Assembly: GCA_046484885.1 (NCBI GenBank)
Contig: JAWOIA010000075.1
Coordinates: forward strand, 26,689-58,688
DNA: 32,000 nucleotides
From: Desulfosarcina sp.
Lineage (GTDB): Bacteria; Desulfobacterota; Desulfobacteria; Desulfobacterales; Desulfosarcinaceae
Reading direction: 5' to 3'
Shown piece by piece: positions 3,718 through 32,000 of this stretch (its first letter is position 1; each line of letters opens with the position of its first letter). The position numbers were made by a program, and so were the translations under genes. The notes beneath the pieces were generated by a model, which searched no databases, was not told where the DNA came from, and worked only from the letters and a program-made list of their open reading frames with translations.

Positions 3718-3766
3718 AAAAACAATTTTCACCATCGGCACATCAATAATGAACAGGAGAAGACAA

Positions 3767-5218
3767 ATGGACTCCAAAGGTCTCAGCGGCGGCATTTACC
3801 AACCGTTGTCGCCGGCAGGCATCGAAACCATTCACGCCGCATCGCTGGCTATCCTCGAAAAGACCGGTATCACCTGGGAATCCGGTCTGGAGGAAACGGT
3901 GGATATGCTGGCGTCCGCCGGCGCGACCGTTGACCGGCAAGCCAGACGGATCCGTTTTGACCGGAAACTGGTCCTCGAACAGGTGGCCAAAGCGCCAGCG
4001 CGGGTGATTCTTTACGCACGCGATGGGAAAAACGACCTCGACCTGACCGAGGACAAGGTTCATTTAGGCACCGGGGGTGCTGCCGTCAAAATCCTCGATC
4101 TGGAAAGCGGGGCGCCCCGTCCTTCAACCCTCCGCGACCTCTATGACCTTGGCCGGCTGGTGGATCGGTTGGACCACATTCACTTTTTCCTGCGGCCTTG
4201 CATTCCCACGGATATCCCCAAAGCCGACTATGACATCAATATGTTCTACGCCTGCCTCAAAGCGACGGGAAAACATGTCATGAGCGGGGTCAATGACGAG
4301 ACGGGGCTGGAGAACGTGATTGAGATGTCAGCTTTGCTGGCCGGAAGCGCAGAACAGCTGCGAGCCAAACCCTTCATCTCGATCATCACCTCCTTTGCCA
4401 TCTCACCGCTGAAATTGTGCACCCAGTCCACACGGATCATGCAGGCCTGCAACCGCAAGGGAATCCCCGTGGTCCTCTCCGCCGCCCCCATGTCCGGCTC
4501 CACCAGTCCCATGACCATGGCCGGCACGCTGGCCCAGCTCCACGCCGAGCAGTTGTCCGGCATCACCATCTGCCAGCTGACCCGCCCCGGCGCACCACTG
4601 CTCTACGGCGGCATCCCGGGCATGGCCAACATGGCCACCATGGGCTATCTGGGCGGCGGCGTGGAGTGTGGCATGATGAATGCCGCGGTCCATCAACTGG
4701 CCGCCCACATCAAGGTGCCCAACTACAACTCCGCCGGGTTGACCGACTCCAAAATTCCCGATGCCCAGGCCGGCTGGGAGAAAGCCATGACCATCCTGCT
4801 GGCCGCCATGGGCGGTTCCAACTTCATGCACCACAGCGCGGGCATGCTGGAATCGATGCTGACGGTCGCCCCGGAGCAGTTTGTCATGGACGACGAGATC
4901 ATCGGCATGACCTGCAAGGTGCTCACGGGCATCGCGGTGGATGCCGACCACCTGGCCCTGGAAGTGATCGACGCCGTGGGGCCGGCCGGCAACTTCATGA
5001 TGGATGCCCATACCATGCAATACATGCGCAGCGAGTATTTTCAGGGCAACGGCGTCACCGATCGCAAAAGCCGCCACCATTGGGAACAGGCCGGAGCGAC
5101 GGATGCCCGCCAGCGCGCCAGGGAGATCGCCCGCAAGATTCTTGCGTCGCCGGAAACCCCCTACATTCCATCGGAAATTGATCAGGCCATCCGGAAACGG
5201 TTTGCCGTGCTGCTGTGA
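3767..5218 (+). CDS. MttB-superfamily (trimethylamine methyltransferase family) protein, non-pyrrolysine type, 483 aa
   Basis: Length and overall sequence pattern are typical of MttB-family proteins, e.g. the N-terminal LSPAGIETIHAASLAILEKTGI block. The frame has no internal TAG, so it is not a Pyl enzyme. Start moved from 3749 to ATG 3767 because AGGAGA lies 6 nt upstream. Confidence 0.75.
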   Translation: MDSKGLSGGIYQPLSPAGIETIHAASLAILEKTGITWESGLEETVDMLASAGATVDRQARRIRFDRKLVLEQVAKAPARVILYARDGKNDLDLTEDKVHLGTGGAAVKILDLESGAPRPSTLRDLYDLGRLVDRLDHIHFFLRPCIPTDIPKADYDINMFYACLKATGKHVMSGVNDETGLENVIEMSALLAGSAEQLRAKPFISIITSFAISPLKLCTQSTRIMQACNRKGIPVVLSAAPMSGSTSPMTMAGTLAQLHAEQLSGITICQLTRPGAPLLYGGIPGMANMATMGYLGGGVECGMMNAAVHQLAAHIKVPNYNSAGLTDSKIPDAQAGWEKAMTILLAAMGGSNFMHHSAGMLESMLTVAPEQFVMDDEIIGMTCKVLTGIAVDADHLALEVIDAVGPAGNFMMDAHTMQYMRSEYFQGNGVTDRKSRHHWEQAGATDARQRAREIARKILASPETPYIPSEIDQAIRKRFAVLL

Positions 5219-22080: not shown

Positions 22081-22131
22081 CTCCGGTGGCGCAGCAGTTG
22101 ATGTGCGTCCGCCACCGGAGCCCCTACTTTT
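22081..22131 (+). terminator. Intra-operon hairpin/attenuator between pstS and pstC
   Basis: Perfect 11-bp stem ctccggtggcg (22081-22091) / cgccaccggag (22110-22120) with an 18-nt loop, followed by cccctactttt. Confidence 0.45.
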
Positions 22132-22186
22132 AGTTCCCGCCATCGGGGCTGCGCTGTTTCAACACCTTGATCTTACGGCTGCAATA

Positions 22187-24802
22187 ATGAACACGCAAAA
22201 AAAATTCACCGGTGCCGGTCGCCGTTACACCACCAAAACCAGCGTTAAAATGATCGAGCACCTTACCAAAACGCTGATAACGTTGGGCGGGGTCGGGACC
22301 ATCATCGCGGTGGCTGGGGTGTTTGTTTACCTGACCAGCGTGGTGGTGCCATTGTTCGCCGGGGCCGACTGGAGCTTGCGCCACCAGGTGGCCGGAGTTG
22401 ATGCGGCCGCCAAGTCCGGTCAGCACCTGGTTGCTGACGAGTTTTTGCTTTCCGCCTGGGTTATCGAGGAGCAGGGGAGCCGGATTCGCTCCTTTCGCCT
22501 GGATACCGGTGAGACCCTGATCAGTGATGACCTTTTTGGCGGCGACACTCCCTTGGCTATTACATACGAGCCCAACTCGCAGATGATCGCCGCCACCTTC
22601 CCGGATGGCCGGATACAATTGAGCGCGGTGGCCATTAAAACCGAATTTCTCACCGATGAAAGCGTCCTGCCGGCCCGGCTCAACGCTTTGGAAATCGGCC
22701 AGATCGCCAATTATGAAGGTGGGGTGGTGCAGCGAACCCCGGTGGGTCAGCTCCGCCGCCTGCGGCTGGAAATCAACCACCAGCCGCCCATTGCCACGGA
22801 GATCGAAGCGCTGATGCTCATCGATGTGGCCGTGTTGACCACCGGGCCGGTCATCACCACCCTGGCCGCCGACGGCCGGTTGCGGGTGCAGAACATCGCC
22901 ATCCGCCGCAACATGCTCACCGGCCAGACCACCACTTCGGTCAGCGGCGGGGAGCTGGCGCTGGATCTGACCGCCCATGGCCTGCCCCGCCAGGTCGTGG
23001 TGTCCGGGCGGGGGGATACGGTGTACCTGATTTGGGAGGACGGCCACCTGGTCCGGGTGGACAGCCGCGATACCCGGCAACTGGTGGTGGCCGAAGAGGT
23101 GAATCTGCTGCCGAAAGGGGATGCCCGGGTAACCGCCGCCGTCGCCCTGATCGGAAAAACCACCCTTATTGTCGGCGACTCCCGGGGCCGGGTCCGGGCT
23201 TGGTTCCGCACCCGGCCAGAGGGGGCGGCCAGTTCCGACGGCGGCGCCTTGACCATGGTCCACGATCTGGGGCAGGGGCCGGCCGCGGTTGCCAGGCTCT
23301 CGGCCTCCATGCGGACCCGGCTGTTGGCAGCCGGTTTTACCGACGGCACCGTGCAGGTTTACCATGTTACCAGCAACCAGCTTCTGGTGGAGGAAACGGC
23401 CGGGGTCGGGCCGGTGGCGGCAGTGGCCCTGGCCCCCCGGGATAATCTCTTGGCCGTCCTGACCCCCGCCGGTTTCACCGCCTGGGAGATGGACCTCAAA
23501 CATCCCGCCGCCAACCTCCATACCATTTTCGGCAAGGTACATTACGAGGGGTTGAACGAGCCGCGCCATGTCTGGCAGTCCGCCAGCGGCACCGACGATT
23601 TCGAGCCCAAGTACAGCCTGACCCCGTTGATCTTCGGAACCCTCAAGGCCACCTTTTACTCCATGCTCTTCGGGGTGCCTTTAGCCCTGCTGGCGGCCGT
23701 TTACACCAGTGAGTTCATGGAAAGCGGCGGCCTGCGCACCAAAATCAAACCCCTGGTCGAGGTGATGGAAAGCCTGCCTACGGTGGTCCTGGGTTTTCTC
23801 GCCGCCCTGGTGTTCGCCACCTTTGTCGAAGGGGCGGTGGCCGGGGTGCTGGCGGCCTTCTTTACCGTGCCGCTCTGCTTTGTGCTGGCCGCCTATCTCT
23901 TTCAGTTGCTGCCGGTGGAAAAATTTGTCCGGATGTCCCAGTTTCGCTTCTACTTCCTGCTTTTTCTGGCCCTGCCGGCGGGCATTTTTCTGGCCGGCCA
24001 ATTTGGTCCCATTGTCGAATATCTCCTTTTTTCCGGTGACATCAAGGCCTGGCTCGACGGGCAGGTGGGCTCCGGGACCGGGGGCTGGTTCATCATGTTC
24101 CTGCCGCTTTCCCTGCTGGCCGTGGTTTTTCTCCTGGGCGGATGGATCAACCCCTGGCTGCGGGAACGGGTGGCCAATTGCTCCCGCTTCCGTACCGGCG
24201 TGGTGGAGGCAGGCAAGTTCGCCGTGGGTACGGTTGCAGTGCTGACCCTGGCCTGGCTGCTGGCCTCGCTGCTGACCCTGATCGGTTTCGACTCGCGGGG
24301 GGATTTCCCCCTCATCGGCCAGGTCATGGGCACCTACGTGCAGCGTAATTCCCTGGTGGTGGGTTTCGTCATGGGCTTTGCCATCATCCCTGCGGTGTAC
24401 ACCATCGCCGAGGACGCCCTTTCCAGTGTGCCGGAGCACCTGCGTTCAGGCTCCCTGGCCGCCGGGGCCACCCCCTGGCAAACGGCGACCCGAATCATCA
24501 TCCCCACCGCCGCCAGCGGTCTCTTTTCAGCGGTGATGCTAGGCCTGGGCCGAGCGGTGGGGGAGACCATGATCGTGCTGATGGCCACCGGCAACACCCC
24601 GGTGATGGAATGGAACATCTTCAACGGTTTCAGGACACTGTCGGCCAATATCGCGGTGGAACTGCCGGAATCAGTGATTTTCAGCACCCATTACCGGATT
24701 CTCTTCCTGGCCGCACTGACCCTGTTTTTGATGACCTTCGTGGTCAACACCCTGGCCGAAGTGGTGCGCCAGCGTTTCCGCAAGCGAGCTTACCAGCTAT
24801 AA
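22187..24802 (+). CDS. pstC: Phosphate ABC transporter permease PstC, long form with ~415-aa periplasmic beta-propeller-like insert, 871 aa
   Basis: The C-terminal ~370 aa is a canonical PstC core, with the EAA-type loop AEDALSSVPEHLRSGSLAAGATPWQTATRIIIP. The N-terminal region has one TM helix followed by WD40-like repeats. ATG 22187 is preferred because the 22103 start in the track would run through the pstS terminator hairpin. Confidence 0.85.
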   Translation: MNTQKKFTGAGRRYTTKTSVKMIEHLTKTLITLGGVGTIIAVAGVFVYLTSVVVPLFAGADWSLRHQVAGVDAAAKSGQHLVADEFLLSAWVIEEQGSRIRSFRLDTGETLISDDLFGGDTPLAITYEPNSQMIAATFPDGRIQLSAVAIKTEFLTDESVLPARLNALEIGQIANYEGGVVQRTPVGQLRRLRLEINHQPPIATEIEALMLIDVAVLTTGPVITTLAADGRLRVQNIAIRRNMLTGQTTTSVSGGELALDLTAHGLPRQVVVSGRGDTVYLIWEDGHLVRVDSRDTRQLVVAEEVNLLPKGDARVTAAVALIGKTTLIVGDSRGRVRAWFRTRPEGAASSDGGALTMVHDLGQGPAAVARLSASMRTRLLAAGFTDGTVQVYHVTSNQLLVEETAGVGPVAAVALAPRDNLLAVLTPAGFTAWEMDLKHPAANLHTIFGKVHYEGLNEPRHVWQSASGTDDFEPKYSLTPLIFGTLKATFYSMLFGVPLALLAAVYTSEFMESGGLRTKIKPLVEVMESLPTVVLGFLAALVFATFVEGAVAGVLAAFFTVPLCFVLAAYLFQLLPVEKFVRMSQFRFYFLLFLALPAGIFLAGQFGPIVEYLLFSGDIKAWLDGQVGSGTGGWFIMFLPLSLLAVVFLLGGWINPWLRERVANCSRFRTGVVEAGKFAVGTVAVLTLAWLLASLLTLIGFDSRGDFPLIGQVMGTYVQRNSLVVGFVMGFAIIPAVYTIAEDALSSVPEHLRSGSLAAGATPWQTATRIIIPTAASGLFSAVMLGLGRAVGETMIVLMATGNTPVMEWNIFNGFRTLSANIAVELPESVIFSTHYRILFLAALTLFLMTFVVNTLAEVVRQRFRKRAYQL

Positions 24803-24809
24803 TTTGAAA

Positions 24810-26684
24810 ATGAGCCGAAAAAAAGTGCGTCACACCAATTTTAAAGCCGATTTGAAGATGCCGGGGACCCCTGCGGCCCGGCAGGCGCCGGACTCCGGCG
24901 GCTCCCGTGCCCCTGCCCCGCAAGCCGGGCGGATCTGGCGCAAAGGCACGGGCCGGGGCGCCACCCTGGCCGCCCATGGTCAGCCCATGGTCTGGCTGGC
25001 CGGCGGTATGCTGGCCATCTGCGTAGTGATGATCATCGGCCTGATCCTGCTGGTTACGGTGCGAGGAGTGGCCACCTTCTGGCCCGGCCCTCTGGTCAGC
25101 TTCGTGCTGGCCGACGGCCAGGTGGTCAGCGGTGAGATCACCCGCACCGGCTCCTACGAGCCCCGGCCCGAACTGATCCTGGCCTTGCCGCCGGAACATC
25201 AAGCCAAGGCCGAGGCCCTGCTGGCGGAAAATGACGGCCGCTCCCATCGTGACCTGGTCCGGACCGGCAACTTCGAGCTGGATGGAAACCACTTCAACTG
25301 GGTCAGTGATTTCACGGTGGCCGAAAAACACCACCCCCAATGGGGACTGGTGATCGAGCGTCTGACCTGGGGCCGCTTCTACGGAGAACCCCGCGAATTC
25401 AGGGTTGACGGGCAAGTGGTGGCCGATACCCCTGAAGCCGCCTGGGCCCAGTTCAAAAAACATCACGGCGAGGCCCGGAAACGTTGGGGGGAGCGCCGCC
25501 GCCTGGAGAGCAAGGCCTTGGGCAGAATCAACCATGCCCAGGAAAAGGCGCGCCTGAAGGTGCGCGAGGCGGAGCTAGCGCTGCAACAGGCCCGGATTCA
25601 GCACGGCAGTAATTCGGCGGCCTATCGCATGGCCAGGGAGGACCTGGACCGGCGGCAGGAAGTTTTCAACCAGGACAACCAGGGGTTTGCCGCCCAATAC
25701 CAGCAAGTCCGCCAGCAGATCAATGCCCTGAACCGGGAAAACGACCGCTATCAGATGCGGTTGGTCACCTATGACGGCCACGAGAAAATGCTCGGGCTGG
25801 CCGAAGTGGTCCGGGCCTATCCCGCCAACCAGGTGGGCCTGCTCAATCGGATCGGCATCTATCTGGATCGCTGGCTGGAATTCCTGCGCGACGATCCCCG
25901 CGAAGCCAACAGTGAAGGCGGGGTGTTCCCAGCCATCTTCGGTACCGTGGTCATGACCCTGATCATGGTTGTCTGCGTAGTGCCCTTCGGCGTGCTGGCC
26001 GCCCTTTACCTGCGCGAATACGCCAAGGCCGGTCCCCTGATCAGCACCATCCGGATCGCGGTCAACAACCTGGCCGGGGTGCCCAGCATCGTTTACGGCG
26101 TCTTCGGCCTGGGCTTCTTCTGCTACCTGGTGGGCAGCAGTATTGATGACTTGTTTTTCACCGCCAAGCTGCCATCACCCACCTTCGGCACCGGCGGCAT
26201 TCTCTGGGCCAGCCTGACCCTGGCCCTGCTGACCCTGCCGGTAGTGATCGTGGCTACCGAGGAGGCCCTGGCGGCGGTGCCCGGCTCCATGCGGGAAGGC
26301 TCATACGCTTGCGGGGCCAGCAAGTGGCAGACCATCCAGCGCATCGTGCTGCCCCGGGCCCTGCCCGGAATCATGACCGGGATGATCCTGGCCATGGCGC
26401 GCGGAGCCGGCGAGGTGGCTCCCCTAATGCTGGTCGGAGCGGTGAAACTGGCGCCCGAGCTGCCCATTGACGGTTTTGCCCCCTTCGTCCACCTGGAGCG
26501 CAGCTTCATGCATTTGGGCTTCCATATTTACGATCTCGGTTTTCAGAGCCAGAACAGCGAAGCGGCCATTCCCATGGTCTTTACCACCACCTTGCTGCTG
26601 ATTCTGATCATTACCCTGCTTAATCTGGGGGCAATCTACACGCGGAACCGGTTGCGGCGAAAATTCATGGTCAGCGCAGTTTAA
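24810..26684 (+). CDS. pstA: Phosphate ABC transporter permease PstA, long form with ~280-aa periplasmic insert, ~624 aa
   Basis: Canonical PstA core at the C-terminus (TEEALAAVPGSMREGSYACGASKWQTIQRIVLP). N-terminal TM helix, then a large insert. The start is ATG 24810 or TTG 24804, immediately after the pstC stop. Confidence 0.85.
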   Translation: MSRKKVRHTNFKADLKMPGTPAARQAPDSGGSRAPAPQAGRIWRKGTGRGATLAAHGQPMVWLAGGMLAICVVMIIGLILLVTVRGVATFWPGPLVSFVLADGQVVSGEITRTGSYEPRPELILALPPEHQAKAEALLAENDGRSHRDLVRTGNFELDGNHFNWVSDFTVAEKHHPQWGLVIERLTWGRFYGEPREFRVDGQVVADTPEAAWAQFKKHHGEARKRWGERRRLESKALGRINHAQEKARLKVREAELALQQARIQHGSNSAAYRMAREDLDRRQEVFNQDNQGFAAQYQQVRQQINALNRENDRYQMRLVTYDGHEKMLGLAEVVRAYPANQVGLLNRIGIYLDRWLEFLRDDPREANSEGGVFPAIFGTVVMTLIMVVCVVPFGVLAALYLREYAKAGPLISTIRIAVNNLAGVPSIVYGVFGLGFFCYLVGSSIDDLFFTAKLPSPTFGTGGILWASLTLALLTLPVVIVATEEALAAVPGSMREGSYACGASKWQTIQRIVLPRALPGIMTGMILAMARGAGEVAPLMLVGAVKLAPELPIDGFAPFVHLERSFMHLGFHIYDLGFQSQNSEAAIPMVFTTTLLLILIITLLNLGAIYTRNRLRRKFMVSAV

Positions 26685-27700: not shown

Positions 27701-28207
27701 ATGAAAAGAAGTATGGGTACCCTTGCGTTGGCCGTCGGTTTGAGCCTGTTTTTCAGCTGTGCCACCGGTACGGTAGCCGGCAACGTTTCCCCTGCACAAA
27801 ACGCCTCTTATGAGCGAGCCGGCTTCGAAACCAGGATTGACAAGGGCGGCCGGCTGTGGGTGTTTGAATCCGGCAGTAAGGCCCTGGCCGACTACGACGG
27901 CAAGGGCGCCCCGGCGAAGCACATCGTTCGACCCCTGGCCGGACCCGGCGGCATCACCCTGAAGGCGGCTGATGGCCACACCATCGACGCCTACCTCCTG
28001 GCCCGCCCCGGCTTCGTTACCCGCATCGACAAACGGGGCCATCTGTGGGTGTTTGAATCCGGCAGCCAGGCCCTGGCCGACTACGACAGCAAGGGCGCAC
28101 CGGCGAAGCACACCGTTCGACCATTGGCCGGACCCAAACAAATGACCATCAAGGCAGTTGACGGCGCAATCATTGACCAGTACCTGCAGGCTGCGCCCTA
28201 TCTCTAA
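27701..28207 (+). CDS. Exported (possibly lipo-) protein made of two tandem ~61-aa repeats, 168 aa, unknown family
   Basis: AAAGGAGAA RBS before ATG 27701. Signal peptide MKRSMGTLALAVGLSLFFSC. Repeat 1 is aa 41-101 (27821-28003) and repeat 2 is aa 104-164 (28010-28192), identical at 46/61 positions by hand alignment. Confidence 0.7.
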   Translation: MKRSMGTLALAVGLSLFFSCATGTVAGNVSPAQNASYERAGFETRIDKGGRLWVFESGSKALADYDGKGAPAKHIVRPLAGPGGITLKAADGHTIDAYLLARPGFVTRIDKRGHLWVFESGSQALADYDSKGAPAKHTVRPLAGPKQMTIKAVDGAIIDQYLQAAPYL

Positions 28208-28239: not shown

Positions 28240-28277
28240 CAGCGACCGGTCCGGTTGATCAGCCGGGCCGGTCGCTG
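28240..28277. terminator. Strong GC-rich hairpin between convergent genes (likely bidirectional terminator)
   Basis: cagcgaccgg (28240-28249) pairs perfectly with ccggtcgctg (28268-28277). The inner tccgg/ccggg extends the stem to about 15 bp, with loop ttgatcag. There is no clean U-tract. Confidence 0.5.
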
Positions 28278-28305: not shown

Positions 28306-29004
28306 TTATTGAATGATCCCGGTTACATGGATCGGGATGGTGGGCCGCAGGGCGCTGTCGGTGTGCAGGTACACGGTATCGACATACCGCCCGGGCTCCT
28401 GCCGGGTGTTTTCGATGCGGATAGACCAGTCCCTCAACCCGTCGCCGCTGCGCTGGACCAATTCATAGGTGATGAACTCCCCGCGCCGGGCCTGGATTCG
28501 TTTGATCGTAAAGGGGTAATCCGCTCGAGGGACGATCGCCACCTCTACGGCCAGCAGGCTTCCGGCCGGGCCGGCCAGGCGCACCCGTTCCGGGCGGATG
28601 TCGGCGAACTTTTCCACTATTCCGGTTACGGCCACCTCAATCCAGGGCCGGTCGGGGTCGTCGGTCTGGATGCGCACCCGCTCCCGGATGGTCCGCCCCC
28701 CGTAGCCGCTGGTATTGAACTTGACCTGGATCGTTCCCTCCTGCCCGGGAGGGATCCGCCGCGTGCTCGAGGCGGTGGTGCACCCTCACCCGGATTTGAT
28801 GTTCAGGATATTCAAAATCTCGTCGCCCCGGTTGTGCAGAATGAAATCGTACAAAATCGGGACCCCCTCCACCACCGTTCCAAACTCAAAGAGACTTTCG
28901 GCAAGAAAGGCTTCCGGAGCAGGGCCGACAGGGTCAGCTGTGCTCAACGCCGGCGCGAGCAGGATACTCAAAATGATCCAACCGTACAGAGCCTTGCTGA
29001 ACAT
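28306..29004 (-). CDS. Exported DUF1573-domain protein with in-frame TGA (28786-28788) at the conserved C-G-C motif: candidate selenoprotein (232 codons); the alternative reading is a nonsense pseudogene
   Basis: Track ORFs 28786..29004 and 28306..28677 are in the same frame and are separated only by the TGA plus 36 open codons. The joined product is MFSKALYGWIILSILLAPALSTA...FEFGTVVEGVPILYDFILHNRGDEILNILNIKSG[TGA]GCTTASSTRRIPPGQEGTIQVKFNTSGYGGRTIRERVRIQTDDPDRPWIEV.... It matches the DUF1573 pattern with the TGA at the first Cys of SCGCT. AAGGAGA lies 5 nt before ATG 29004. Confidence 0.55.
28735..28794 (-). promoter_or_regulatory. Candidate bacterial SECIS-like hairpin embedding the TGA
   Basis: Hand-folded mRNA. 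The pairings are UCCGGG/CCCGGG (6 bp), G:C, GGGU/AUCC, CCGCC/GGCGG and CG/CG, closing an AGCA apical loop 19-22 nt after the UGA. A competing hairpin UCCCUCC-CGGGCA-GGAGGGA lies at 28735-28754. Confidence 0.35.
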
Positions 29005-29014
29005 GGTGTCTCCT

Positions 29015-29620
29015 TTACTCGTGTGAATCCGGACGGCTCGCTTCCAATTCCGCCATCAGCGCATCGACGCCGGTTGCAATGCTGCGGCCGCCGCTGTAGC
29101 GGGTCATCTCCTGGTCCGGTCGGGTCACGACACAGGTGGGGGTGCTTTTGACTTCAAAGCGGTTGATCAGTGCCACCCACTGGTCGAATAGGGGCTTGAC
29201 ATCCAGCAGCGCCAGCGGGATGTGGTTTTGCCTGAGCGCCTGGATCAGGTCGCCTTCTGAATGCACCGTTTTGGCCTTGGCGATATCAAACAAAACTTGT
29301 CGAATTCGTAAAATGTCGGCAAAGCTGCTGGACGCATTGGCCGCGTAAAGGAAATAGCGCGAAAAAACCGGTGTCAGCGCATAGATGGGCATATCCACAA
29401 AAGTGATTCTGGCGCCCATCTGGTGCAGTTTCACCAAAGCGTCGTCCAGGTAGGGCTCCACCGCCCGGCAGGGCGGGCAGAAATAATCCGTGAAAATAAG
29501 AACTTCGATCGGCCCGCAACCGTAAGAAAAAAGGCTGCGCGGCGCCTGACCCGCCGAAGCCGGCGCGCTTGCCAAAAACAAGCACACCATCAACAGAATC
29601 ATTGGGCCGGTTCGCGACAC
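29015..29620 (-). CDS. Exported DsbA-like thioredoxin-fold oxidoreductase (CPPC), 201 aa
   Basis: Signal peptide MSRTGPMILLMVCLFLASAPASAG. IEVLIFTDYFCPPCRAVEPYL active-site context and a C-terminal VKSTPTCVV cis-Pro-type loop. GTG start with AAGGAGG upstream. Its TAA stop overlaps the RBS of the DUF1573 gene. Confidence 0.75.
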   Translation of the reverse strand: MSRTGPMILLMVCLFLASAPASAGQAPRSLFSYGCGPIEVLIFTDYFCPPCRAVEPYLDDALVKLHQMGARITFVDMPIYALTPVFSRYFLYAANASSSFADILRIRQVLFDIAKAKTVHSEGDLIQALRQNHIPLALLDVKPLFDQWVALINRFEVKSTPTCVVTRPDQEMTRYSGGRSIATGVDALMAELEASRPDSHE

Positions 29621-29760
29621 ATTGCCTCCTTGATCGGTACGATGAGTTGTGTTGGCGTCATTTTTTTACCTGGGGCGCCCGCGGCAGCCATAACCACACC
29701 GGCCGTCATCCACTGGTTAACCCCGATAAAAAAGCTGATCAACCATCTCTCGAAAAACCC

Positions 29761-30747
29761 CTATTGGTGTTTTTGGTTCGCAATGCCGGAACCGCTTTGA
29801 TCTTTTGGTTCAACCCCAATCCGGGCGAGCTGTTTGAGGACCTCGGGTTCCGGGAAGAAACCCACGTTTCGAAACGTTTCCCGGCCCGTGGCATCGTAAA
29901 ACACCTGAACCGGGATGGACCGAACGCCATAGCGGGCCGCCAGGAGTTGGTCCTCCCCCACATGGACGAACACGACGTTCAACTGCTCCGCAAAGGTATG
30001 GCGCAGCTTCTCCAATATGGGTTGCATCATGTCGCAGGGAACGCAACCGGCGGCGCCAAACTCAACCAGAGTCGGCTTGTTGGAAAGACGGGCCTGATCC
30101 ACTGGATTGTCCAGGGCAAGACGGCTCTGGGATTCCACCCAGCTTGCATCAACGCGCAAATTCACCGATTCCGCCAATGCGGAGATGGTTGTCATGACGG
30201 CGTGCTGCTTTTTCTCTTGGAGCAGATAGTGCCGGATAGCGTCCTGGACCTCTTGGAACGACGCGGCACCGATCATTTCGCGGTTGGACTGGTAAAAGGC
30301 CATAAGCTCGCTTTCGGAAACGGAAACGTCAGCGAACTGGCGCTCGAACCATGTCTGGATGCGTTCATCATCGTCTCCGCTGTTCGGAATAGCGGCTTTG
30401 TCCGCCTCATTCACGAGCATCCGACGGGTGGCTTCCTGATCCAAGATAAAGAGCAGGTGCTTTTCGAGTTGTCCGCGCACTGCGGGCGCTTCCTGATTGA
30501 CGACCGCCATCAGTTCCGCACGCGTAATTTCAATGCCTTCGGCGACTAACAGGATCGATCCGTCCAACGGTTCCAATTTGGCGTAACTCAAAACTCCCAA
30601 GGCCAGCATCGGATATTTGGCCTTCACGGTCAGTTGTTGCGCGCCCTGAACCGTGGCGGCCGTGAGCGCCAAAAACGCACCCAAGAGAAGCCACAGGCCC
30701 AATAACCGGATGCTGCGATGTTTATTCAGTGGTCGGAAAACGTGCAT
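29761..30747 (-). CDS. Exported fusion protein: SurA-N/PpiD-like chaperone domain + C-terminal thioredoxin domain (CVPC), 328 aa
   Basis: Signal peptide ...LLGLWLLLGAFLALTAATVQGA. SurA_N-type block VSESELMAFYQSNREMIGAASFQEVQDAIRHYLLQEKKQ. Trx block PTLVEFGAAGCVPCDMMQPILEKL...YGVRSIPVQVFYD. Confidence 0.7.
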   Translation of the reverse strand: MHVFRPLNKHRSIRLLGLWLLLGAFLALTAATVQGAQQLTVKAKYPMLALGVLSYAKLEPLDGSILLVAEGIEITRAELMAVVNQEAPAVRGQLEKHLLFILDQEATRRMLVNEADKAAIPNSGDDDERIQTWFERQFADVSVSESELMAFYQSNREMIGAASFQEVQDAIRHYLLQEKKQHAVMTTISALAESVNLRVDASWVESQSRLALDNPVDQARLSNKPTLVEFGAAGCVPCDMMQPILEKLRHTFAEQLNVVFVHVGEDQLLAARYGVRSIPVQVFYDATGRETFRNVGFFPEPEVLKQLARIGVEPKDQSGSGIANQKHQ

Positions 30748-30841: not shown

Positions 30842-31261
30842 TCAGCTCACGCCCAGCTTGGCAAGGTTCTCGACAATCCGTTTTTTGTCCATGAAACCGG
30901 TGTGCCGGTACACTTCCCGTCCGCTGACATCAAAGAAAATTTGGGTCGGAATGGCCCGGATGCCATATTTTTTGGCTTCGGACGGGTCCTTCCACACATC
31001 GATAAAGATGATATCGGCCCTTCCGGCATATTCCCTTTTAAGCTCTTCCAGAATAGGCGCCATCATTTTACAGGGAATGCACTCTGTGGCACCCAGGTCG
31101 ATCATGGTCACCCGGCCGGTGGTTGGTATCGTGGACAAGTCCGGGGCAATGGCCCCGTTCACCTCCGGCCCAAGGGACGCTGAGGGCGGCTGCATCATTT
31201 TGTAGAGCACCAAAAGGGCAACAACGGCCAGGGCTGCAACGAGTATTCGATTCAGCTTCAT
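30842..31261 (-). CDS. Membrane-anchored periplasmic thioredoxin-like protein (CIPC), 139 aa
   Basis: N-terminal TM helix ILVAALAVVALLVLY. Trx fold VTMIDLGATECIPCKMMAPILEEL...YGIRAIPTQIFFD. Confidence 0.8.
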   Translation of the reverse strand: MKLNRILVAALAVVALLVLYKMMQPPSASLGPEVNGAIAPDLSTIPTTGRVTMIDLGATECIPCKMMAPILEELKREYAGRADIIFIDVWKDPSEAKKYGIRAIPTQIFFDVSGREVYRHTGFMDKKRIVENLAKLGVS

Positions 31262-31264
31262 GGT

Positions 31265-31522
31265 TTAAACCTCATCCGCAGAACCAGCCCCCGCGTTGAT
31301 CCAAGCGAGCACCTCTTCTTTCTTGGGTATCTTGCCCACCGACTTGACTTCGCCGTCGATTACCACCGCAGGCGTGCCGAACACCCCGTACCCCGCGATT
31401 TTCATCACGTCGGTGACTTTTTCCACATCCACCGCTACACCGGCCTCGGCAACCGCCTCCCGGACCACGGTTTCCGCCTGTTGGCATCTGGGGCAGCCAG
31501 GTCCCAAAACTTTGATTTCCAT
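31265..31522 (-). CDS. Small thioredoxin-family protein (Thioredoxin_3 / redox-active disulfide protein 2 type, CPRC), 85 aa
   Basis: MEIKVLGPGCPRCQQAETVV...VEKVTDVMKIAGYGVFGTPAVVIDGEV is the typical pattern of this family. AAGGAG RBS. No signal peptide. Confidence 0.8.
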   Translation of the reverse strand: MEIKVLGPGCPRCQQAETVVREAVAEAGVAVDVEKVTDVMKIAGYGVFGTPAVVIDGEVKSVGKIPKKEEVLAWINAGAGSADEV

Positions 31523-31568: not shown

Positions 31569-31928
31569 TCAGCGCCGGCAAATGGATTCACGATGAAAAT
31601 CGGACAGTCGGGCCAGCAGGACCGCCACCTCGGCGTCCTCCTCCAGCCAGTGACGCAGACTTCCCAACAAGGCACTCGCATAGGGATTGCAGACGCCTTC
31701 TGCCAGCCGATAGTTGACCCACAGCCCCTCTTTGGAAGCGGTGATCAAGCCGGCCTCTTCTAAAACCTTGAGGTGCTTGCTGGTGGTCGACTGCGCCAGA
31801 CCCAAGGCCTCTTGGATTTCACACACGCAAAATTCCCTGCGCTGGAGCAGTTTGACCATCTTGACCCGGTTGGTCTCAGACAGGGCTTTCATGACTTTGA
31901 TAAATTCACGCATATCCCCCCCCGTCAT
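31569..31928 (-). CDS. ArsR/SmtB-family metalloregulatory repressor
   Basis: wHTH with a CVC motif: VKLLQRREFCVCEIQEALGLAQSTTSKHLKVLEEAGLI. The alternative start ATG 31913 (MREF...) is preceded by a G-rich tract. Confidence 0.85.
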   Translation of the reverse strand: MTGGDMREFIKVMKALSETNRVKMVKLLQRREFCVCEIQEALGLAQSTTSKHLKVLEEAGLITASKEGLWVNYRLAEGVCNPYASALLGSLRHWLEEDAEVAVLLARLSDFHRESICRR

Positions 31929-31940
31929 ATCGCTACATGC

Positions 31941-31969
31941 AAATTTATAGATTTACTTCGTTTTGTCAA
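31941..31969 (-). promoter_or_regulatory. Candidate promoter and operator of the arsR-trx cluster
   Basis: On the minus strand: TTGACA (31964-31969), 16-nt spacer, TAAATT (31942-31947). An imperfect 14-bp palindrome AAATTTATAGATTT (31941-31954, 12/14 self-complementary) overlaps the -10. Confidence 0.3.
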
Positions 31970-32000
31970 GAAAAAAAAGGGGCCGCCAACTCATATCGAT

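Follow-up and report, generated by a model that had tools for sequence, protein, structure and literature searches.

A UGA-interrupted gene and its neighbourhood

The window, i.e. the whole 32,000-nucleotide stretch of Desulfosarcina sp. DNA analysed here, carries on its minus strand a complete gene of the OS_HP2/DUF1573 family with one in-frame UGA, preceded by a series of genes for thioredoxin-like proteins and an ArsR-family regulator (Table 1). As the original prediction had pointed out, the ORF list splits this locus into 28786..29004 (72 aa, ATG start) and 28306..28677 (123 aa, GTG start). Re-translation of the minus strand shows that the TGA (context SG-TGA-GCT) is the only internal stop in the frame, and that it is followed by 36 open codons, GCTTASSTRRIPPGQEGTIQVKFNTSGYGGRTIRER, which run in the same frame into the GTG of the second ORF. 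This GTG is an internal Val codon, as proposed, and no separate start is conserved for the downstream piece. The part of the gene downstream of the UGA amounts to 159 codons. The spacing of 10 nt to the upstream thioredoxin-like gene was also correctly predicted, the ribosome-binding site lying within this spacer (AGGAGACACC), between the TAA (29015-29017) and the ATG (29004).

Table 1 Features of the OS_HP2 locus, in window coordinates.
Feature	Position	Strand	Basis or remark
OS_HP2-family gene (putative selenoprotein), complete	28306..29004	minus	232 codons + TAA stop, one in-frame UGA
Signal peptide, predicted Sec-type, residues 1 to ~23 (MFSKALYGWIILSILLAPALSTA)	28936..29004	minus	hydrophobic core, then small residues
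N-terminal Ig-like DUF1573/OS_HP2 domain, residues 35-131, bears U-G-C	28612..28902	minus	profile matches and homolog model
C-terminal second Ig-like beta-sandwich domain, residues 132-232	28309..28611	minus	homolog model
UGA codon 73, putatively read as selenocysteine, first position of U-G-C	28786..28788	minus	column conservation, independent assemblies
Cys75 codon (TGC), likely resolving partner in U-G-C	28780..28782	minus	invariant in all orthologs
Hairpin A, best SECIS candidate, CCGCC-U-CG-AGCA-CG-C-GGCGG	28756..28775	minus	nt +14 to +33 from U of UGA
Hairpin B, UCCCUCC-CGGGCA-GGAGGGA	28735..28754	minus	nt +35 to +54, over IPPGQEG codons
Ribosome-binding site AGGAG	29010..29014	minus	5 nt 5' of ATG, directly 3' of upstream gene's TAA; read from sequence
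Strong stem-loop 3' of gene (CAGCGACCGG...CCGGUCGCUG)	28240..28277	minus	between convergent genes
Exported thioredoxin-fold protein (CPPC), closely spaced upstream gene, 'DsbA-like' in the original prediction	29015..29620	minus	weak Thioredoxin matches
Exported 328-aa protein, C-terminal thioredoxin domain (CVPC)	29761..30747	minus	PF00085, E = 6.9e-11
Thioredoxin (CIPC), 139 aa, membrane-anchored or exported	30842..31261	minus	PF00085, E = 6.7e-14
Small MTH895/ArsE-family thioredoxin-like protein (CPRC)	31265..31522	minus	TIGR00412, 97.7 bits vs cutoff 62
ArsR-family regulator, first gene of putative operon	31569..31928	minus	PF01022, E = 5e-16
Sigma-70-like promoter match TTGACA-16-TAAATT	31942..31969	minus	just 5' of arsR; 10/12 positions

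The stem-loop that follows the gene is strong (81-nt fold of -39 kcal/mol, z = -4.5, a stability that none of 200 shuffles attains). It lacks a U tract, and the consensus terminator scan made no call on it; termination or RNA stabilisation is a possible role. At the other end of the putative operon, the sigma-70-like site is a match to the consensus only, and the total number of such sites found is not above shuffle expectation.

Homologs of the gene for the CPPC thioredoxin-fold protein adjoin OS_HP2 in 9-10 related loci, those of the 328-aa CVPC protein and of the 139-aa CIPC thioredoxin occur in 23 related loci each, and ArsR homologs in 17. The conserved neighbourhood of OS_HP2 in the related loci comprises Trx, CcdA/DsbD_TM, MauE, rhodanese and ArsR genes, often together with an Acr3/SBF-like transporter, and OS_HP2 is usually the last gene of the cluster. 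The window locus differs from its relatives in having no CcdA, MauE or rhodanese genes nearby. Among the neighbouring genes for Trx, rhodanese, MauE and DsbD, no Sec version turned up in the related loci.

Family membership and conservation of the TGA codon

The joined protein, with U replaced by C, was used as query for the profile searches. It matches the NCBIfam model NF041425, "OS_HP2 family (seleno)protein", with 119.9 bits (cutoff 100), residues 35-131 covering model positions 2-98 of 98, and Pfam DUF1573 (PF07610) with 59 bits (cutoff 26.1). OS_HP2 corresponds to pfam07610 and was described by Zhang & Gladyshev in 2007 (PMC1976440) and 2008 (PMC2398784) as a selenoprotein family with a UxC/UGC motif; it is also listed in reviews of 2022 and 2026 (PMC9312934, PMC13188914). 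The original view of DUF1573 as an undescribed selenoprotein family must therefore be dropped, and the window gene is a member of the already known OS_HP2/DUF1573 "U-G-C" selenoprotein family, which makes the finding correct but ordinary.

We compared the window gene with 73 related loci, at 40-84% identity. The TGA had been predicted to replace the first Cys of the C-G-C motif, and this is indeed the column it occupies, the alignment showing SICGCT for the Cys homolog L003 and SCGCT for the Bacteroidales locus L001. At this column, 72 of the 73 loci have TGA, and L003, a close relative and the one close Cys-form comparator found, has TGC. Such recurrence in a single column is far beyond chance, in line with the argument that the placement is not random. 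All related loci are in frame on both sides of the TGA. Conservation downstream of it is as strong as upstream, and the 50 invariant columns of a 10-sequence alignment are spread across both halves of the protein. The residue corresponding to Cys75 is invariant in all orthologs, being encoded by either TGC or TGT. Going by these sequences, the two-domain OS_HP2 subfamily would consist almost entirely of Sec forms.

The exact N-terminal product ending at the TGA recurs on 7 contigs, which come from at least 6 samples and include a strain variant differing by 15 substitutions, and the identical TGA codon is present in 6 independent assemblies. Since this product recurs in at least six independent samples, the TGA is neither a sequencing error nor the mark of a pseudogene. 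In the public entries (P0001 and P0003-P0016) the gene is either split into a 72-aa and a ~125-150-aa "hypothetical protein" or has its TGA translated as Trp. The locus is thus an annotation error that has been flagged rather than a discovery, and the correct call would be a single OS_HP2-family selenoprotein.

Elsewhere in the window TGA is an ordinary stop, ending 12 of the 24 well-supported genes, Trp is encoded by TGG, and none of the remaining genes has an in-frame TGA. Genome-wide recoding of TGA (translation tables 4 and 25) was rejected on these grounds. When ORF pairs bridged by a TGA were sought as further selenoprotein genes in the window, only the OS_HP2 locus was credible. None of selA, selB, selC (tRNA-Sec) and selD was found in the 32-kb window or in 40 related loci, the flanks of which are short and therefore uninformative in this respect.

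RNA hairpins 3' of the UGA and the decoding of codon 73

Two hairpins follow the UGA within the coding sequence. Hairpin A of the window (MFE -11.4 kcal/mol) has a stem that begins 10 nt and a loop that begins 18 nt downstream of the UGA, with a G in the apical loop (AGCA). Almost every Sec form has this hairpin, in register 47, 44 or 42/48 and built from many different stem sequences, the apex being located at nt 20-26 whatever the register; it is absent in the Cys form L003. As the register shifts between clades, a single fixed column-wise structure across all orthologs was rejected. In the genes compared, the hairpin A segment folds with an MFE of -9.6 kcal/mol, whereas the value for their other windows is -3.5 kcal/mol, and when windows are ranked gene by gene its median position is in the top 2.3%. 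Compensatory changes amount to 14-15 double-changed cells against about 5 in shuffles, a count reached by 0 of 500 shuffles; these counts and the slid-partner controls are more reliable than the percentage of paired positions, which is biased upward because the two main registers were tested separately. Two clades have apical loops with no G, of the L047 type (CUCCAC, CCCCAC) and of the L064 type (UUACAC). The bSECISearch criteria reportedly place the apical loop ~16-37 nt downstream of the UGA, and the position of hairpin A agrees with these distances.

Hairpin B has an MFE of -12.9 kcal/mol and a median rank in the top 1.4% of windows within its own gene. It is nearly invariant, with 96.5% pairing in alignment A5 and pair 38-51 occurring as CG, UA and UG. 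Synonymous codons are biased inside both hairpins: the Ser codon in the loop of hairpin A is AGY in 36 of 40 cases (background 46%), while in hairpin B the codons CCT (31/38) and CCC (37/42) are used above their backgrounds of 21% and 27%, respectively. Since hairpin B persists in the Cys form L003, its role in Sec insertion is uncertain, and the conservation at the RNA level is, at least in part, not specific to Sec. Folding of the single sequence against shuffles gave z = -2.4 for hairpin A, -1.9 for hairpin B, -1.4 for the 57-nt region and -0.4 for 81 nt, values that are too weak by themselves in a GC-rich context, so that the SECIS argument rests on the comparative data. An Rfam scan at a permissive E-value returned no SECIS-like family; its sole hit, CRISPR-DR23, was sub-threshold (E = 0.065) and was dismissed as chance.

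There is strong support for the original proposal that the TGA encodes selenocysteine in a DUF1573 protein with a U-G-C motif: dozens of divergent orthologs retain the codon between flanks that are both under selection, one homolog has the Cys form, a downstream hairpin covaries, TGA is a normal stop elsewhere in the window, and the protein matches a curated (seleno)protein model above its cutoff. The gene thus very probably encodes an exported two-domain Ig-like OS_HP2/DUF1573 selenoprotein, with the UGA at codon 73 decoded as Sec. Were the TGA instead a genuine stop, arising by nonsense mutation, pseudogenisation or sequencing error, the product would be limited to the 72-aa fragment, the rest of the frame being a decaying relic. 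Standard ORF and gene callers do break the gene at this point, both in the window and in the majority of public records, but this reading is effectively refuted by the same TGA in nearly all related loci despite their divergence, by its presence in six independent assemblies, by the in-frame conservation of the 159 downstream codons, and by a downstream piece whose only apparent start is an internal Val codon.

It is highly unlikely that the full-length protein is made outside the Sec pathway, with near-cognate read-through or a dedicated suppressor inserting Trp, Cys or Gly. Such decoding would be in keeping with Sec machinery being unseen in the window and related loci, with the G-less hairpin loops of some clades and with the Trp that public gene callers give at the TGA codon in P0001 and P0003. 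This Trp is, however, a code-table artefact on a TGA, the codon is a normal stop in half of the well-supported window genes and in-frame in no other, and the homologs align Cys, the classic partner of Sec, at this column. Moreover, a position-specific conserved hairpin is a requirement of SelB-dependent decoding, and curators class OS_HP2 among the selenoprotein families. In bacteria, Sec insertion and termination by RF2 are generally in competition, and the UGA could in principle act as a selenium-sensing switch, the default product being a functional exported 72-aa peptide and the full-length selenoprotein appearing only when selenium is plentiful. The short product would keep the signal peptide and about half an Ig domain. 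Against this, half a beta-sandwich would be unlikely to fold, conservation is equal on both sides of the TGA and the existing Cys form can make the full-length protein only, which leaves very little probability for a switch.

Fold, proposed function and relation to known systems

The structure was considered through a model of the natural Cys homolog P0002, standing in for the window protein. The model (pLDDT 87.9) consists of two Ig-like sandwiches and is all-beta with no helix; the CGC motif is located between two strands of the first domain, and the equivalents of residues 1-21 are disordered. The C-terminal domain has a pLDDT above 90 in this model and is conserved in all orthologs; a Pfam search gave no match for it (residues 132-232). 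The window copy differs from its relatives in having lost the Cys pair of this domain. The best Foldseek matches are ASH/HYDIN Ig-like domains (PF22544) and PDB entry 2qsv, with E-values of 2e-10 to 8e-8, and the Pfam model PF22544 is matched with 32.2 bits (cutoff 25.5); a sequence search of the PDB gave no match. A thioredoxin-fold oxidoreductase of the CxxC/CxxU type was rejected, the homolog model being all-beta and the motif UxC rather than UxxC. The window protein may still belong to a thiol-redox pathway, though outside the thioredoxin-fold family.

In the proposed mechanism, hairpin A would act as a bacterial SECIS, possibly assisted by the adjacent hairpin B. It would bring SelB-GTP-Sec-tRNA(Sec) to the ribosome and let translation run on to the end of the gene. 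In the first domain of the mature protein, U73-G-C75 would occupy a loop flanked by two beta-strands, where it most likely cycles between selenolate/thiol and selenenylsulfide, or chelates a soft metal or metalloid. The protein is probably periplasmic, partnered with the thioredoxin-fold proteins encoded directly upstream and controlled by an ArsR-type regulator. The signal peptide and the Ig-like fold, taken with the conserved Trx, CcdA, MauE and rhodanese genes around OS_HP2, would point to selenol-thiol redox chemistry or metalloid binding in the periplasm. The idea of the C-G-C as a catalytic redox centre, also put forward in the original prediction, would fit the thiol-redox neighbourhood; metal or metalloid binding by this motif is equally possible.

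A broader picture, possible rather than probable, starts from the conserved cluster working as one unit: in that case a periplasmic reductive pathway would end in OS_HP2 as its selenol-bearing acceptor or sensor. Two-domain OS_HP2 would be almost obligately Sec and the only selenoprotein of a cluster of ArsR, several exported thioredoxins, CcdA/DsbD_TM, rhodanese, MauE and often an Acr3/SBF-like transporter, the pathway would be an undescribed one acting on metalloid or sulfur/selenium species, and Sec insertion would proceed via unusual tandem hairpins, one of them inside the invariant PPGQEG-coding segment. The near-exclusive use of Sec and the tight linkage to genes for periplasmic thioredoxin, CcdA, MauE and rhodanese make for a testable functional hypothesis.

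Redox centres of the CXC or Sec-Cys type include the CGC peptides used as PDI mimics, the CPC of Mia40 and the C-terminal GCUG of thioredoxin reductase. The U-G-C of the window protein is likewise a chalcogen pair one residue apart, which could form a strained selenenylsulfide ring, and its gene sits among thiol-disulfide oxidoreductases. Its scaffold is, however, an Ig-like beta-sandwich instead of a thioredoxin or flavoprotein fold, and its activity is putative. The closest structures, ASH/HYDIN-type domains and 2qsv (a P. gingivalis protein), show only 7-16% sequence identity, and these proteins are structural or scaffold modules without a known redox motif, unlike the U-G-C protein of the window.

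The SECIS of the E. coli fdhF type is a SelB-binding hairpin with its apical part at least ~11 nt after the UGA and an essential G/U in the loop. Hairpin A, the SECIS candidate of the window, is similarly placed in the coding region, 10 nt after the UGA, and has a G in its loop; in OS_HP2 its structure is conserved while its sequence is not. It differs from the fdhF type in its shifting register and in the two clades with no loop G, and in being followed by a second conserved hairpin that is shared with the Cys form.

Cys-containing DUF1573 (PF07610) proteins such as L001 and L003 belong to the same fold family and carry C-G-C in the same column, with Cys (TGC) where the window gene would have Sec and, for L003, with no hairpin A. 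A genome-collection scan for close relatives yielded a single DUF1573 locus, a distant one from Bacteroidales. L001, a generic DUF1573 member, shares only ~32% identity with the window protein, and this within the first domain. Like the published OS_HP2 family, the window gene combines this domain with a U-G-C motif headed by Sec, and its source is similar in both organism and habitat (metagenomes of sediments and anoxic sites, with a Desulfobacterota-like gene content); nothing essential is different. What is added to the OS_HP2 papers cited above is the near-exclusive use of Sec in the two-domain subfamily (72/73 loci), the two conserved hairpins 3' of the UGA and the conserved synteny with Trx, CcdA, MauE and rhodanese, an incremental advance inside a known family.

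The in-frame TGA and its conservation

Translation of the minus strand gives the OS_HP2 gene as one 232-codon frame, in which the TGA at codon 73 (...NILNIKSG-TGA-GCTTASSTRRIPPGQEG...) is the sole internal stop. The ORF list divides the locus into a 72-aa and a 123-aa product, and 10 nt carrying the RBS (AGGAGACACC) separate the stop of the upstream gene from the ATG. The ORF split, TGA position, RBS and 10-nt gap described in the original prediction are all borne out by this re-translation. The N-terminus (MFSKALYGWIILSILLAPALSTA) resembles a Sec-type signal peptide, which the protein is accordingly predicted to carry.

Features of the window discussed in the text
Feature	Position	Strand	Description
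OS_HP2 gene	28306-29004	-	DUF1573-family protein, ATG at 29004
In-frame TGA	28786-28788	-	codon 73
N-terminal ORF	28786..29004	-	72 aa
C-terminal ORF	28306..28677	-	123 aa, start is an internal GTG
Stop of upstream gene	29015-29017	-	TAA
Hairpin A	28756-28775	-	nt +14 to +33; CCGCC-U-CG-AGCA-CG-C-GGCGG; -11.4 kcal/mol
Hairpin B	28735-28754	-	nt +35 to +54; UCCCUCC-CGGGCA-GGAGGGA; -12.9 kcal/mol
Residues S186, W193	28447-28449, 28426-28428	-	sites of the ortholog Cys pair
arsR	31569-31928	-	first gene of the run ending in OS_HP2
Stem-loop	28240-28277		3' of OS_HP2
Convergent neighbour	27701-28207	+	putative lipoprotein
MttB-superfamily gene	3749-5218	+	methyltransferase
PstC-like gene	22103-24802	+	phosphate ABC permease, 899 aa
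PstA-like gene	24804-26684	+	phosphate ABC permease, 626 aa
CRISPR-DR23 match	28940-28965	+	judged chance

A protein search returned 17 homologs, one of which (P0002) is a full-length Cys form with the motif SICGCT. Two entries presented as full-length have W at the critical column, and the others are fragments of about 130-155 aa starting just past it. The DNA of the loci was fetched, and each fragment gene was found to have an ORF of 71-73 aa directly before it; in the W entries and in all of the split genes TGA stands exactly at the critical column, with the frame intact. A metagenome scan contributed 65 further loci, and 73 loci were readable at the TGA column, with 50 distinct downstream sequences sharing 40-84% identity with the window protein. 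The original prediction had asked whether homologs carry Cys or TGA at this column: the codon is TGA in all 73 except L003, a close Cys-form locus, where it is TGC. Invariant residues flank the TGA on both sides in the ortholog alignment. An N-terminal product identical to the 72 aa of the window occurs on 7 contigs drawn from 6 or more independent samples; TGA is present in all those examined, one of which is a strain variant with 15 substitutions farther downstream. This variant (L084, 826-1524) matches the window gene exactly up to nt 288, a stretch that takes in the TGA and both hairpins; the substitutions lie from nt 289 on and the C-terminal part is like the L015/P0004 type, which points to a recombinant or mosaic allele.

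The recurrence of the TGA across loci and samples and its intact, conserved flanks exclude three explanations of the internal stop: sequencing error, random nonsense mutation and pseudogene formation. Genome-wide recoding of TGA is likewise excluded, since the codon terminates 12 of the 24 well-supported window genes, no in-frame TGA was found in any other window gene and Trp is encoded by TGG. The comparison across loci strongly supports the reading of this TGA as, very probably, a selenocysteine (Sec) codon. Gene and tRNA scans found none of selA, selB, selD and tRNA-Sec in the 32-kb window or in 40 related loci.

Family assignment and predicted fold

With Cys substituted for Sec, the joined product scores 59 bits against Pfam DUF1573 (PF07610, cutoff 26.1), matches the related HYDIN/VesB Ig-like Pfam model, and reaches 119.9 bits over all 98 positions of NCBIfam NF041425, "OS_HP2 family (seleno)protein" (curated cutoff 100). 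The name stands for "Olavius symbiont hypothetical protein 2"; PMC1976440 (Table 2) presented it in 2007 as a new selenoprotein family, and the 2008 Global Ocean Sampling survey (PMC2398784) has an entry "OS_HP2, pfam07610, UxC" that counts 2 Sec sequences beside 354 Cys homologs. Selenocysteine in DUF1573 is therefore not new, and while the biological reading of the original prediction holds, its claim to novelty does not. The window gene is a typical member of this family, known since 2007-2008 and carried by name in a current NCBI annotation model. The residual value lies in putting right a gene call that is split or mistranslated, together with the comparative detail added to OS_HP2, namely a subfamily nearly all in Sec form, two post-UGA hairpins and conserved synteny. 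Public protein predictions for the homologs are systematically wrong (P0001 and P0003-P0016; L002, 415-1074; L004, 401-1078): two entries read the Sec TGA as Trp, apparently through a TGA=Trp code table, and at least 13 are C-terminal fragments, each with a separate 71-73-aa "gene" before it.

P0002, a natural Cys homolog with 52% identity, was modelled confidently (pLDDT 87.9, pTM 0.72) as a disordered leader followed by two all-beta Ig-like domains, with the C-G-C between two strands of domain 1. The best structural matches to this model are ASH/HYDIN-type Ig domains and 2qsv from P. gingivalis (function unknown). Judged from the predicted all-beta fold and these matches, a thioredoxin fold would be ruled out for OS_HP2. 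In the second Ig-like domain, most orthologs carry a pair of Cys residues (consensus ERCxDGxxRC). Both are gone from the window copy (QRSGDGLRDWS) and likewise from L003 and L005, while L015 and L016, the closest relatives of the window copy, retain them. The pair looks like a dispensable structural disulfide that is lost as a pair. In a periplasmic role, U73 and its motif partner C75 would act as a selenenylsulfide/selenol-thiol couple or, alternatively, as a soft-metal or metalloid site, serviced in either case by exported thioredoxins, and we regard redox and binding roles as about equally probable.

Gene neighbourhood

OS_HP2 is the last gene of a same-strand run comprising, in order, ArsR, a small MTH895/ArsE-type thioredoxin, an anchored thioredoxin, a 328-aa exported thioredoxin fusion, a CPPC thioredoxin-like protein and OS_HP2, with a promoter-like match upstream of arsR. 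Among 76 loci compared by tblastn, with labels from Pfam, its neighbours include MauE/DoxX (38 loci), DsbD_TM/CcdA (36), rhodanese (27), the two thioredoxins (23 each), ArsR (17), an SBF/Acr3-like transporter (12) and the CPPC thioredoxin-like protein (9-10); no Sec forms of these neighbours were found in the related loci. The window cluster (29621-29760 and 31929-32000) is without DsbD_TM/CcdA, rhodanese and MauE, genes that roughly half the related loci possess, and the sister contig L085 (174-2543) has TauE/SafE-family and MscS-type genes upstream of arsR instead. In several loci (L047 2783, L050 459, L051/L052 2783, L055 673, L057 771, L058 1697, L059 592, L066 1885) a conserved C-G-C (LDINCGCFSTGS) is also present in the membrane protein of MauE type whose gene immediately precedes OS_HP2; this second CGC protein of the cluster may be a redox partner or share the motif by coincidence.

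The stem-loop between OS_HP2 and its convergent neighbour is very stable (81-nt fold, -39 kcal/mol, z = -4.5) and was not called by the consensus terminator scan (no U tract). The neighbour's product (MKRSMGTLALAVGLSLFFSC...) has no Pfam match and consists of two tandem units of about 75 aa (RIDKxGxLWVFESGSxALADYDxKGAPAKHxVRPLAGP...). Elsewhere in the window, the MttB-superfamily protein (PF06253, E = 2e-112) is encoded by an unbroken 489-aa ORF with no in-frame TAG and is therefore a non-pyrrolysine member, sitting in a genome read as using another recoded amino acid, Sec. The PstC- and PstA-like permeases are unusually long, and the large extensions at their N-termini match no domain clearly, save for a faint beta-propeller hit.

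Hairpins 3' of the UGA

The window sequence alone only modestly beats shuffles (z = -2.4 for hairpin A and -1.9 for B; positions count the U of UGA as +1), so the case for the hairpins is comparative. Almost all Sec forms carry a hairpin of 5-9 bp whose apex falls at nt 20-26; its stems are diverse (CCGCC/GGCGG, CUGCUGUAU/AUACAGCAG, CUGUCUC/GAGACAG, CAGCCUC/GAGGCUG, GCAUCCA/UGGAUGC) and the pairing register moves between clades. The A window averages -9.6 kcal/mol, against -3.5 for codon-phased windows of 27 nt elsewhere in the same genes, with 2.3% of background windows as stable at the median; for B the mean is -10.5 kcal/mol and the corresponding share 1.4%. Helix A is paired at 92% and 89% in the two main register groups, figures inflated by the choice of groups by register, against 39-57% with the 3' partner slid. 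The compensatory changes are unaffected by this choice: column-wise counts give 3 pairs changed on both sides per register group, and doubly changed cells number 14-15 against about 5 in shuffles, with 0 of 500 shuffles reaching that figure. Synonymous sites within the hairpins also depart strongly from own-gene codon usage, at p-values that are inexact because the sequences are related: the Ser codon +7 in the A loop is AGY in 36 of 40 (background 46%), Pro +12 is CCT in 31 of 38 (21%), Pro +13 is CCC in 37 of 42 (27%) and Gly +14 is GGG in 30 of 48 (21%).

Hairpin B may have an accessory or stacking function, or may partly be a by-product of coding for the invariant PPGQEG, with another RNA-level role. 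In the single Cys-form comparator, L003, B is kept (2078-2140), one of its C-G pairs having become U-A through compensatory changes (CCU to CUU with GAG to GAA), and A is gone (-3.7 kcal/mol, 31% of background windows being as stable). Either the role of B is unrelated to Sec insertion, or L003 is a recent Sec-to-Cys conversion.

The Rfam scan gave no SECIS-like match. A sub-threshold CRISPR-DR23 match from Rfam (22.9 bits, gathering score 45, E = 0.065), which falls within the stretch coding for the signal peptide but on the other strand, was judged to be chance. Bacterial SECIS elements of the fdhF type have a characteristic distance from the UGA and a characteristic loop. Hairpin A is like them in distance and, in the window, in its loop; in two clades the A loops lack a G. 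Because distance and loop appear to fit this paradigm, we read hairpin A as the candidate SECIS proper.
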